Source: a candidate division WOR-3 bacterium
GTDB taxonomy: Bacteria; Hydrothermota; Tepidihabitantia; Tepidihabitantales; CAIPLT01
Assembly (NCBI GenBank): GCA_965649215.1
Contig: CBFGJZ010000022.1
Coordinates: 1-26,483 of the forward strand
DNA: 26,483 bases
Reading direction: 5' to 3'
Numbering within the stretch: position 1 is the first letter of the stretch; each line of letters starts with the position of its first letter. The position numbers were made by a program, and so were the translations under genes. Under the pieces are notes generated by a model. It was given only the letters and a program-made list of their open reading frames with translations. It was not told the DNA's origin and made no database searches. Shown here in pieces: positions 1 through 26,015 of this stretch.

Positions 1-14
1 AGTTTATATAATTA

Positions 15-42
15 AATATAAGTGCTAAATAAGTAATGTCAA
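15..42 (-). promoter_or_regulatory. sigma70-type promoter for a gene beyond the left edge
   Basis: Minus strand TTGACA (42-37), 16 bp spacer, TATATT (20-15). Confidence 0.45.
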
Positions 43-53
43 GCAAATTTTTT

Positions 54-335
54 GTCATTGCGAAGGAGTATAACGACCGAAGCAATCTTACCGACAGTAT
101 TTAGCATTCTCATCTTATTACTGTATGCAAGATTGCCACGCTCATTCCATTCGCTCGCAATGACATTTGTGTAGTCTTGTCATTGCGAGGGAGCAAAGCG
201 ACCAAAGCAATCTTACCGACAGTATTTCCCATTTGTCATTGCAAGGGAGCAAAGCGACGAAGCAATCTTACCGACAGTCTTTCCCGTTTGTCATTGCGAG
301 GGAGTATAACGACCGAAGCAATCTTACCGACAGTA
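54..335. repeat. Cluster of 5 REP-like palindromic repeats (GTCATTGC[G/A]A..GCAATCTT, with ACCGACAGT tail on forward copies)
   Basis: Forward copies at 54-99, 179-224, 235-278, 290-335; inverted copy at 129-164. Copies starting at 179, 235 and 290 are tandem with 56/55-bp spacing. Confidence 0.9.
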
Positions 336-427
336 AAAAATCTAAAATCATCTCTTTGTCCTTACTTTCCTTTATGTCTTTATCTTTTTTAAGATTATAA
401 CCATAAAAGATTCTCGATACCTTACTT

Positions 428-643
428 AGCCATCTAAATAACCCAGTCGGTCACCATCTAGACAATATATTGGGCAATCGGTTATCTAACCTACTAATTA
501 AAATAGTAGATAATATAACAGATAACCGAATTAGTAATCTTTATAATGACATCGTCGGTCACATAATAGGTGAGCCGGGGGGCTACCTAATAGGCAACCT
601 ACAAGGTGACCTGCTAACTTAACTATCTGATAACCAATAAGGT
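428..643. repeat. Degenerate 12-bp-period tandem array, consensus AACCTANTAGGT
   Basis: 17 in-register units from 440 to 643 counted by hand: position 2 = A in 17/17, position 4 = C/A in 17/17, position 12 = T/C in 17/17, position 10 = purine in 16/17; weaker units at 428 and 416. Confidence 0.8.
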
Positions 644-699
644 TAGAGTGTACCCTGCGATTTTATAAAAGTATTTGATAAGTGTTCTCAAGTGGTTAT

Positions 700-845
700 A
701 AGATTGCCACGCTCATTTCATTCGCTCGCAATGACGGTAAAGGGCGTATGCAAGATTGCCACGCCGTCTTTGATGGCTCGCAATGACACCCTGCTATTTG
801 TCATTGCGAGGGAGTATAACGACCCAAGCAATCTTACCGACAGTA
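700..845. repeat. Cluster of 3 REP-like palindromic repeats, same family
   Basis: Inverted copies at 700-735 and 752-787; forward copy at 800-845 differs by one base from 290-335. Confidence 0.9.
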
Positions 846-866
846 TTTTGTCCTCCTGTATCAATC

Positions 867-895
867 TTGACATAAGATAGTATTGGCTTTATACT
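867..895 (+). promoter_or_regulatory. sigma70-type promoter for tRNA-Leu and the tig-clpP-clpX operon
   Basis: TTGACA (867-872), 17 bp spacer, TATACT (890-895), 9 bp before the tRNA. Confidence 0.75.
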
Positions 896-904
896 TAAAG
901 ACCT

Positions 905-988
905 GCGAGGATGGCGGAATCTGGCAGACGCACTGGATTTAGGATCCAGTGGAGAAAATCCGTGGGGGTTCAACTCCCCCTCCTCGCA
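905..988 (+). tRNA. tRNA-Leu(TAG)
   Basis: Acceptor stem GCGAGGA/TCCTCGC, anticodon arm CTGGA-TTTAGGA-TCCAG, long variable arm, GGTTCAACTCC T-arm; CCA not encoded; usual position upstream of tig. Confidence 0.95.
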
Positions 989-1038
989 TAAAAAGTAAAA
1001 AATAATAAAAAACTAAATAAAGAAAGAACTAATATAAA

Positions 1039-2253
1039 ATGGAAATAAAATTTAAAGAAACAAAACCTTATCTTAAAGAGATTGAAGTTACAATAGAACC
1101 ACAAACCGTGATTCAGAAGATTGAACAAGTAACTTCATCTTATGCCCAAAAAGCACAAATTCCCGGTTTTCGTAAAGGTATGGCACCCCGTCCTATCTTA
1201 CAAAAACGCTACGGTGCTACTTTTGAAGCAATGGCAATTGATGAACTGATTGAAGAGTCTTATAAAGAAATAATTGAAAAGCATAGTCTTGAACCTATCA
1301 GTCAAGCCAAAGTTAATGATTATCAAATTAGTGACGATAAAACCTTAAAGTTTGATTTAAGTTTTGAAGTGATTCCTGACTTTGAACTTAAAAATTACTT
1401 AGGTATCAAAATTAAGAAATTAGAACCAACTGGCTTTGATGAAGAGTTTGATAAACGGATTAAAGCTTTACAAGAACGATGTGCTACCTTCAGCACTCTT
1501 AATCGTCCTGCTCAAAATGGCGACTATGTATTAGTTGACTATGATATTTATGAAAATGAACAGAGTGTAAGCAAAAAGCAAACTGGCGTTATGATTGAAG
1601 TTGGTGGTGAAAAAAATATGCCTGAAATTAACCAAGCCCTGCTTAATGGTCAAGCCGGTGAACAAAAATCAGCAACAATTACTTTTCCTGCGGATTATCC
1701 TGAAAAAACTTTAGCAAATCGGACTTTGACTTATAAATTTTATATTCGTGATGTTAAAGAGAAAAAATTGCCTGAAATTGATGATAATTTTGCAATTGAT
1801 TTAGGATTCAAAGACCTAAGCGAACTTCGCAATCAGATCAATGAAGAAATTCTACAAGACCGAGCCCAGATTATTAACGAAGATATGAAAAATCAAATTT
1901 ATAAGTATCTTATTCGGGAGCATGATTTTGAAGTCCCGCCAAGTTATGTTGAGCAAACCTATCAAGAGTTATTAAACGAATTTAATATTCAAGACGACAC
2001 TAAAGCCAAAGAAAAATTATATCCTTTTGCTATTGAACGAGCCAAGTTTAATATTATTATCAATCGGATTGCTCGTAAAGAAGGGATCATGCCTACGGAA
2101 AAAGATATTGAACAAGAATTACAAAAATATCTTAATGCCGGTCTTAAACAAGACCAATTAGAAATGTTAAGCAAGAGCCCTGTGTTTTTAGGACGCTTGA
2201 TACAAAATAAGACTTTGGATTGGCTCATTGAACGAGCCGATATATCTAATTAA
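1039..2253 (+). CDS. tig: Trigger factor
   Basis: IPGFRKGMAP ribosome-binding signature, FKBP-like middle domain (TFPADY), position before clpP-clpX. Confidence 0.95.
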   Translation: MEIKFKETKPYLKEIEVTIEPQTVIQKIEQVTSSYAQKAQIPGFRKGMAPRPILQKRYGATFEAMAIDELIEESYKEIIEKHSLEPISQAKVNDYQISDDKTLKFDLSFEVIPDFELKNYLGIKIKKLEPTGFDEEFDKRIKALQERCATFSTLNRPAQNGDYVLVDYDIYENEQSVSKKQTGVMIEVGGEKNMPEINQALLNGQAGEQKSATITFPADYPEKTLANRTLTYKFYIRDVKEKKLPEIDDNFAIDLGFKDLSELRNQINEEILQDRAQIINEDMKNQIYKYLIREHDFEVPPSYVEQTYQELLNEFNIQDDTKAKEKLYPFAIERAKFNIIINRIARKEGIMPTEKDIEQELQKYLNAGLKQDQLEMLSKSPVFLGRLIQNKTLDWLIERADISN

Positions 2254-25774: not shown

Positions 25775-25902
25775 TCACTAATATTACATTAAATTAAAAG
25801 ATTCGGGGGGTCATTTTACCCTTCTGAATCGTTATAGATAGATAAAGAGATTTATGAAAAGGACTGAATGAGAAACGATACTAGAAAGGTAAAAGACAAA
25901 GT

Positions 25903-26005
25903 GTCATTGCGAACGAACAGAGTGAGCGTGGCAATCTTGCCGACAGTATTTCCCTTTTCGTCATTGCGAGCGAATGTAATGAGCGTGGCAATCTTAGCGA
26001 CGGTA
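25903..26005 (+). repeat. Two tandem REP-like repeats, same family
   Basis: Copies at 25903-25948 and 25960-26005 with the ..TGAGCGTGGCAATCT core; linker TATTTCCCTTTTC resembles the linkers at 225-234 and 279-289. Confidence 0.88.
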
Positions 26006-26015
26006 AAACCAAGAT

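Follow-up and report, generated by a model that had tools for sequence, protein, structure and literature searches.

The 12-bp-periodic tract near the left end of the window is, with a probability that we put at about nine in ten, one copy of a dispersed, non-coding repeat element of the foldback type, about 240-260 bp long. The window, meaning the whole stretch of DNA that was analysed, is the entire 26.5-kb contig C22 of a draft genome (G000), which comprises 1.64 Mb in 39 contigs at 35% G+C and is 95% complete. The family stands out by the position-specific constraint on its units and by the 12-bp phase kept within the arms, in copies that have otherwise diverged almost to saturation. It behaves like the MITE/REP-type repeats and is apparently an undescribed cousin of them; unit-built palindromic repeats are of a known kind, and it is the 12-bp-phased sequence of this family that is apparently new.

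The periodic array and the element around it

The 12-bp periodicity is confirmed. A preliminary description of this DNA cut positions 440-643 into seventeen 12-mers, and we obtain the same 17 units, all of them different. Its counts for unit positions 2 to 6 (A 17/17, C 10, C 12 with A in the other 5, T 11, A 11) and for positions 8 to 12 (T 11, A 10, G 12, G 9, T 13 with C in the other 4) are identical to ours, and the run of six G (577-582) and the TAA stops at 620 and 638 are where it placed them. The comparison with shuffled sequence that it proposed gives a clear answer. Over 428-643 the mean autocorrelation at lags 12, 24 and 36 is 0.469, against 0.265 in 2000 mononucleotide shuffles (sd 0.018, maximum 0.329) and 0.285 in 2000 in-frame triplet shuffles (sd 0.019, maximum 0.348); lags 6, 18 and 30 are depleted in the array (0.14-0.18). 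When 269,814 N-free 216-bp windows of the genome were scored in the same manner (mean 0.293, sd 0.027), the present locus scored 0.467 and took rank 8 among distinct loci. Ten of the 11 top-ranked loci inspected resemble the array under study, the remaining one (C13:3181) being unrelated AT-rich sequence. A position-weight scan shows that a single unbroken phase spans approximately 420-648, i.e., 19 units, slightly more than first described. Tandem Repeats Finder (TRF) did not report the array, because the units are too dissimilar from one another.

The array belongs to a full copy of the element, which extends over 405-664 from an A-run at the left end to a T-run at the right end. This copy aligns without gaps over its full length to those at C3:68583, C31:16384, C15:12837 and C17:16585; the five are gapless over about 240 bp and share about 60-97% identity. 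The left terminal region (405-431) consists of the A-run, a GC-richer patch and then ACTTAGCC; by eye it looks like the inverted counterpart of the right terminal region (641-664), which, also by eye, reads GGTTAG, a GC-richer patch (CCCTGCG) and then ATTTT. The 3' motif ...CCCTG-N-GATTTT is found in the C3, C15, C17 and C31 copies as well. The phased array itself (420-647) is defined by the phase scan and the unit matrix as 19 dyad-symmetric 12-bp units with the consensus A-A-C-C-T-A-n-T-A-G-G-T. It contains a core hairpin (567-589), TAGGT-g-AGCC / GGGG / GGCT-ACCTA, with 9 pairs and one bulged base, which is conserved across copies; the run of six G at 577-582 spans its 4-base loop and the two bases with which the 3' side of its stem begins.

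A 505-bp segment that holds the element and flanking repeats (233-736) is duplicated at C3:68390-68894 with 96.2% identity, so that the C3 duplication takes in the window copy plus 240 bp of its flanks. The left flank (52-335) is occupied by another dispersed repeat family, with units of about 55 bp beginning tgtcattgcgag..., for which TRF reports a period of 55 at 177-335 and BLAST gives many matches across contigs. Further copies of this second family lie at 692-850, and it also flanks copies of the element in contigs C31 and C2 and in G001, a genome of the same genus. Downstream of the element and separate from it are a promoter-like site, TTGACA-17-TATACT (867-895, plus strand), and tRNA-Leu(tag) (904-989, plus strand).

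The element is non-coding. A decayed or unusual coding sequence, with a tetrapeptide repeat of the form G/D/S/N - N/D/H/Y - L/P - I/L/V, would account for the indels, which come in multiples of 12 and never shift the frame, and for the small number of stops; one copy in G001 (L076) and the copies in G011, a genome from another family of the order, are open throughout. However, the pattern RRY-NAY-CYN-NTN makes no stop unless a unit departs from it, so an open frame is uninformative here, and in G011 both strands of the copies are open. Four independent copies together have 8 TAA stops in the array frame, and no start codon precedes 470 in the left arm of the window copy. The codon usage is not that of the genome's 573 long ORFs: CTA accounts for 26 of 53 Leu codons in the array frame (7.5% in the long ORFs), ATA for 23 of 32 Ile codons (17.7%) and AAC for 22 of 41 Asn codons (18.4%), which is 3-7 times their use in real genes. 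The 50-aa mechanical ORF inside the array (470-622, plus strand), which appears in the ORF listing and is not a gene, has no Pfam match and no relative among the proteins of 27-88 aa in a database of 5.8 billion clusters. The preliminary description would have yielded to an intact tetrapeptide-repeat ORF under codon-level selection; the stops and the alien codon usage speak against such an ORF, and we give the coding alternative next to no weight.

Copies in this genome and in its relatives

An iterated nhmmer search, started from window positions 404-670 and run to convergence, found 26 loci in the 1.64-Mb genome. The further arrays for which the preliminary description proposed a genome-wide search therefore exist. 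Of the two alternatives that it offered, the new dispersed element is supported, with 26 loci here and more in relatives; the analogy that it drew for the other, with a parC/omega centromere or a Fur-box operator, is not supported at this locus, where the neighbours of the array are tRNA-Leu, tig, clpP and clpX. A long degenerate periodic pattern run on the same genome matched 14 loci and brought up no copy beyond those already known.

A copy comprises what appear to be imperfect inverted ends, an array of 15-19 12-bp units and an invariant GC-rich hairpin core, and the copies differ in length by whole units. All 14 type-A copies with a recognisable core share TAGGT-g-AGCC, a 4-base loop (NGGG or CCYN) and GGCT-ACCTA; in the stem of these 14 copies, 4 of the 9 pairs never vary, 88.9% of the cells pair, and there is no covariation. 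In nine others (type B), register and layout are unchanged but the near-core units have the form TATCC-nnn-GGGT or GGAT, the two half-sites having changed jointly from ACCTA/TAGGT to ATCCC/GGGAT. Left ends and reverse-complemented right ends are alike over about 25 bases in several copies of G000; the likeness is clearer in G001 (CCTGACC...GGTCAGG) and in copy L083 of G004, a genome of a sister genus (all by eye and unscored). A search of window positions 1-1100 against Rfam 15, at E values up to 1, gave no match at 405-664; the matches obtained were the tRNA and one chance-level match lying on it. No description of a dispersed bacterial element with a 12-bp period was found in the open-access literature.

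The copies lie between genes. Overlap with an ORF of at least 90 aa is absent at 24 of the 26 loci, and the remaining two overlap ORFs of 92-93 aa. The 24 placed copies occupy 8 convergent, 15 tandem and 1 divergent spacers, the genome totals being 118, 727 and 125, respectively. In tandem spacers the copy is closer to the stop of the upstream gene (3-341 bp) than to the next start in 14 of 14 cases, and its orientation relative to that gene is the same in 6 and opposite in 8. A locus-specific centromere of the parC/omega type or a Fur-box operator array serving the neighbouring genes would share with the present array its tandem dyad-symmetric units. Yet 26 copies are spread across many contigs, no partition or regulator gene is among the four neighbours of the window copy, and the promoter-like site of the tRNA is 200 bp further on. 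Moreover, the array is absent from this locus in related genomes: none was found upstream of tRNA-Leu/tig in about 1.1 kb of G001, G003 and G007, nor in the approximately 280 bases that precede the contig end in G009. We consider this alternative very improbable.

The core motif, searched with up to 2 mismatches in 272 genomes of the phylum, has 13 matches in G000, 9 in G011 and 1-3 in each of 12 other genomes, against 0-2 matches per genome for the reversed-core control. The G011 elements are about 300 bp long, GC-rich and 12-bp-phased; they are 75-92% alike, keep the same register, and have no gene common to their neighbourhoods. When the element was compared by BLAST with 41 genomes, namely G000 and 40 relatives, the matches beyond G000 itself were short and confined to the core. 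The covariance model R1, which has 132 columns, matches G000, G001 and G004, i.e., 3 of the 66 genomes of the order and 3 of the 132 genomes of the class; these counts are lower bounds, since R1 missed both the G011 family and a type-B-like copy that was spotted by eye in G007, which represents a third genus. The exact core was found neither in 185,579 species genomes nor in metagenome contigs, in searches from which records of the genome itself were possibly excluded.

At some loci the element has been gained or lost, and others keep it. The spacer at 105.2 kb of contig C4 is a bare 190 bp in G000 and holds a copy together with the other repeat family in G001. In G000, G001 and G004 a copy of like orientation occupies the spacer behind a periplasmic binding-protein gene (Peripla_BP_6), with both flanking genes conserved; the G007 copy lies about 430 bp from the end of its Peripla_BP_6 gene, and no copy was found in this spacer in G008, which belongs to the genus of G004, or in G005. 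Either the pattern has long been maintained in place at this site or the site has been hit repeatedly. Copy identity is 0.64 within genomes and 0.61 between them, and positional orthologues, at about 0.6-0.7, are no closer than paralogues; the identities are too flat for orthologues and paralogues to be distinguished.

With respect to mobility, the family fits the definition of a MITE in part only. It is small, non-coding, multi-copy and dispersed, and shows presence and absence at orthologous loci, even within one genus (present in G004 and absent from G008 at the Peripla_BP_6 locus). The features of a MITE that it did not show are a target-site duplication and a transposase-bearing relative, the latter sought in G000 as Y1 genes and IS-sized repeats. 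By eye, no direct repeats flank the ends in the copies inspected, and a loose regular expression for the element ends returned only noise. The assembly of G000 holds no IS-sized multi-copy repeat and only 3 repeat pairs of at least 350 bp; insertion sequences are often lost from draft assemblies. The Y1/RAYT gene (PF01797) has no match in G000, G002, G003 and G011, and one in G001. The sole comparison of a filled with an empty site, the C4 spacer, is obscured by other repeats.

Unit constraint, folding and possible readers of the array

The dyad symmetry of the unit, reported initially from the window copy, holds across 72 units of 4 independent copies. The constrained positions in this matrix are position 2 (A in 68), position 12 (a pyrimidine in all 72), position 4 (C in 52), position 9 (A in 48), position 5 (T in 46), position 6 (A in 45), position 3 (C in 43, T in 18) and position 10 (G in 43, A in 24); positions 1 and 7 are free, and the dyad is centred on a free base (...RGY-n-ACC...). 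Pairwise identity in homologous columns is 0.90 at position 2 and 0.79 at position 12, compared with 0.46-0.53 for free positions and 0.30 for flanking sequence. The arrays of G001 and G004 show the same matrix as those of G000. A single phase is kept in 24 of the 26 copies of G000 (over 156-234 bp in 21 of the 26) and in 5 of 5 arrays of G001. A second phase is present in the two other G000 copies, and 3 of the 5 G004 arrays shift by 1-2 bases near the core, so that the coherence of phase is a property of each arm and is not absolute. From these identities we conclude that the copies are old and that selection or an equivalent biased process maintains the unit pattern.

The units of G000 are asymmetric between strands (A 310 to T 241 and C 177 to G 136). 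We dropped this asymmetry as a sign of a strand-specific RNA, as it is not reproduced in the unit matrices of G001 and G004. Adenine mutagenesis of the DGR type does not fit the invariant A at position 2. Type III antitoxin repeats, CsrA sponges, integron attC sites and DnaA-box arrays were set aside as well; Rho-loading YC arrays with 12-nt spacing remain as an idea at low odds.

We tentatively prefer, at slightly less than even odds, to regard the family as a MITE/REP-like foldback element whose units serve as phased protein-binding sites on duplex DNA. A dyad-symmetric protein might bind to the 12-bp units and coat the array cooperatively, a step of the mechanism that we rate as possible but somewhat doubtful; it might be a host protein or the element's own mobilising transposase or recombinase. 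Selection would then keep the contact bases of the unit and the 12-bp phase, not particular long-range pairings. Cooperative protein binding on duplex DNA is what takes place at RHH-type repressor and partition arrays. A binder of duplex DNA is preferred because bases are fixed at given positions, because phase is kept per arm and because a unit is indifferent to the unit opposite. Likewise, the idea in the preliminary description of a polymerisation platform for a dimeric protein would best fit the conservation of units, the coherence of phase and the absence of copy-specific pairing. Mobility of the element, and any benefit to the host, we infer. Neither a binding protein nor a transposase nor a target-site duplication was found by the Y1/RAYT and IS-sized-repeat searches in G000 and by inspection of the flanks.

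Two other explanations dispense with a binder. According to one, the array functions as a hairpin of the REP kind, in transcripts or in single-stranded DNA: transcribed from either strand within a 3'-UTR, it would form long, imperfect hairpins that shield the upstream mRNA from 3' exonucleases or halt read-through, and the consensus would be kept only for its self-complementarity. Much of what is seen agrees with this. The window copy folds more strongly than its shuffles on both strands (-82.4 kcal/mol, z -5.4, for the minus strand; -63.6 kcal/mol, z -2.7, for the plus strand), and each of the five full-length copies gives a fold in which the ends pair and hairpins form inside. An A-run at one end and a T-run at the other flank the GC-richer end stems. 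The copies lie at gene 3' ends with enrichment between convergent genes, their orientation is indifferent, as expected of a palindromic element, and 4 genomes from 3 genera retain one behind the periplasmic binding-protein gene, a situation that resembles the classic REP sites following malE and hisJ. However, pairing within a copy is no better than pairing between arms of different copies. With the fold placed around the core, Watson-Crick pairing at the free positions is 0.277 within a copy and 0.278±0.035 between copies, and at the pattern positions 0.525 and 0.541±0.013. Of 20 candidate fold centres in the left arm none was clearly above the control, the best (near window position 500) giving 0.28 against 0.20±0.03; these covariation tests, made on 13 copies whose left-arm alignment may contain 12-bp slips, have low power. 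The shared dyad-symmetric unit thus accounts for the self-complementarity. The core hairpin, being invariant, is uninformative, and the predicted MFE folds vary from copy to copy. A hairpin tolerates bulges, which leaves the 12-base phase of the arms unexplained, and in type-B copies such as that in C7 the degenerate left arm is not complementary to the GC-rich right arm. Finally, canonical terminator hairpins were seen by eye beside several copies (C17, C24, C9, C28 and L083 of G004), so the element does not substitute for terminators. We see the hairpin explanation as the chief competitor of the preferred reading, though rather unlikely.

The other explanation is a neutral relic: a 12-mer would long ago have expanded in tandem, been copied to other places in the genome and since begun to decay, its units under no selection. 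That the units are degenerate, with none identical, that copies differ in length by whole units, and that the searches for Y1 genes and IS-sized repeats in G000 gave no partner gene would all follow from it. Decay should nevertheless be even, whereas positions 2 and 12 are far better kept than the free positions and the flanks, and the same positions are constrained in G001 and G004. The absence of phase-breaking indels in 24 of 26 copies, despite a divergence of about 55% at free sites, is also hard to reconcile with decay; we regard the neutral explanation as distinctly improbable.

A more far-reaching form of the preferred reading, namely phased binding sites on duplex DNA, is that the host itself uses the arrays as landing pads. 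A small dyad-symmetric protein would polymerise on the 15-19 sites into a nucleoprotein filament of about 220 bp that either organises the nucleoid or, behind gene ends, blocks or insulates transcription regardless of orientation; the pads would have been spread by a foldback MITE and then kept where they are by selection. Such pads would explain a copy retained downstream of the same gene in three genera, with the unit pattern kept and almost no sequence identity. We find this extension improbable.

In uncultured bacteria, much of the non-coding DNA is taken up by small dispersed repeats, the majority of which lack an explanation. Here we read the pattern of constraint and phase as the mark of a reader that would count in twelves rather than that of a simple hairpin. 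Should the binding protein exist, the element would offer a portable scaffold of natural origin and defined phase on which proteins polymerise along DNA, as well as a means to test whether such repeats insulate convergent genes. If it proves to be a REP-like hairpin and nothing more, it would still extend the range of designs known for such elements, and the R1 model would let annotators mask 26 false small-ORF regions in the lineage.

Comparison with known systems

The parC/ParR, omega heptad and MetJ met-box arrays consist of spacer-free tandem units to which dimers bind cooperatively and in which phase matters; they have 2-10 units and lie beside their cognate genes. Met-box arrays possess a double symmetry, within the box and across the junction between boxes. 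The present array shares this double symmetry; however, parC, omega and met-box arrays are single loci with a regulatory or partition function, and the present family comprises 26 scattered copies, each of 15-19 units and lacking a cognate gene nearby.

Among the closest described elements, together with REP/BIME and foldback elements, is the BrickBuilt MITE of Porphyromonas gingivalis, which, in the available part of the source, has a minisatellite of spacer-free 23-nt units, a leader and a tail with small inverted ends, about 19 copies that are always intergenic, and a narrow host range (PMC4596501). As in that account, the present element is small, non-coding, intergenic and multi-copy, with an array of short units between apparently inverted ends (PMC4596501). 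Compared by description with the same partial text, it differs from the 23-nt BrickBuilt units in that its units are 12 bp long, dyad-symmetric, all different and phased, with a GC core interrupting them (PMC4596501).

The family fails the definition of REP on size, composition and association with RAYT. REP and BIME sequences are presented, in the portions of the two articles considered, as extragenic palindromes after genes in either orientation, often between convergent genes, for which hairpin, mRNA-stabilising and protein-binding roles have been proposed (PMC3333891, PMC3733652). Our element resembles what these portions describe in being palindromic, in lying after genes in either orientation and in occupying convergent spacers (PMC3333891, PMC3733652); its extragenic position at gene 3' ends is thus that of a REP. 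A REP there is one GC-rich palindrome, 20-40 bp long, whereas the present element is about 250 bp long, AT-rich and built of 12-bp units (PMC3333891, PMC3733652), only its 23-bp core being GC-rich. REP sequences often carry a GTAG tag. The copy found after the binding-protein gene in 4 genomes would agree with a REP-like function in transcripts no less well than with DNA binding.

For the mechanism that we prefer, i.e., cooperative binding of a protein to phased duplex sites, foldback transposons with repetitive arms such as Galileo may serve as a model, on the basis of the part of the publication available (PMC3688188). Galileo of Drosophila is described there as a foldback-like transposon with long TIRs, the internal repeats of which hold multiple sites for a THAP transposase (PMC3688188). 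The likeness to this excerpt is that the whole element is an imperfect palindrome with arms of tandem short repeats; unlike the far larger, eukaryotic Galileo with its known transposase, the present element has units that are palindromic themselves (PMC3688188).

Lastly, the G-rich heptamer repeats of Xanthomonas and Nostoc are, in the accessible section of the report on them, dispersed, hairpin-capable and composed of short units; they lie directly behind stop codons and come and go between relatives (PMC4692102). By comparison with that section, the present family has a period of 12, each unit is a palindrome of its own, and the units are strongly diverged (PMC4692102).

A recurrent position downstream of a periplasmic binding-protein gene

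The same periplasmic binding-protein gene is followed by the 12-bp element in four genomes belonging to three genera: the source genome G000 (C24:15692-15940), its congener G001, the sister-genus genome G004 and G007 from a third genus. In three of the four, the next gene at this locus is glyS.

A GC-rich variant was found in G011, which represents another family of the order. It is about 300 bp long, retains the 12-bp phasing and occurs in at least nine copies with a mutual similarity of 75-92% (loci L044, L054, L058, L060, L062, L064 and L066). The open frames observed on both strands of this variant result from the repeat pattern alone.

Repeats adjoining the element

In the window, the 12-bp element is bordered by a second dispersed repeat family with units of about 55 bp (tgtcattgcgag...gcaatc), which is present in both orientations at positions 52-335, 692-850 and 25896-26008 and has further copies on many contigs. 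Repeats of this family likewise adjoin 12-bp elements in contigs C31 and C2 and in G001; shared spacers seem to accumulate both families.

Short AAGATT-type repeats (e.g., AAGATTnnAAGATT) directly abut the 12-bp elements in three genomes: at positions 391-412 of the window, at L079 in G001, and at L086 and L089 in G004. They may constitute the outer end of the 12-bp element or a separate small repeat.

Transposase, long repeat pair and tRNA promoter

A Y1 (IS200/RAYT-type) transposase gene was sought in the source genome, and none was found; such a gene is present in G001, of the same genus, at L074 (C27:7709-8050). The source genome also contains a pair of 1105-bp repeats with 96% identity (C5:68535-69639 and C8:60279-61383), one copy of which lies within an ORF of 1633 aa.

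The promoter of the tRNA-Leu(tag) gene of the window (867-989, including the promoter) is close to consensus, reading TTGACA-17-TATACT, and relatives retain this motif upstream of the tRNA gene.
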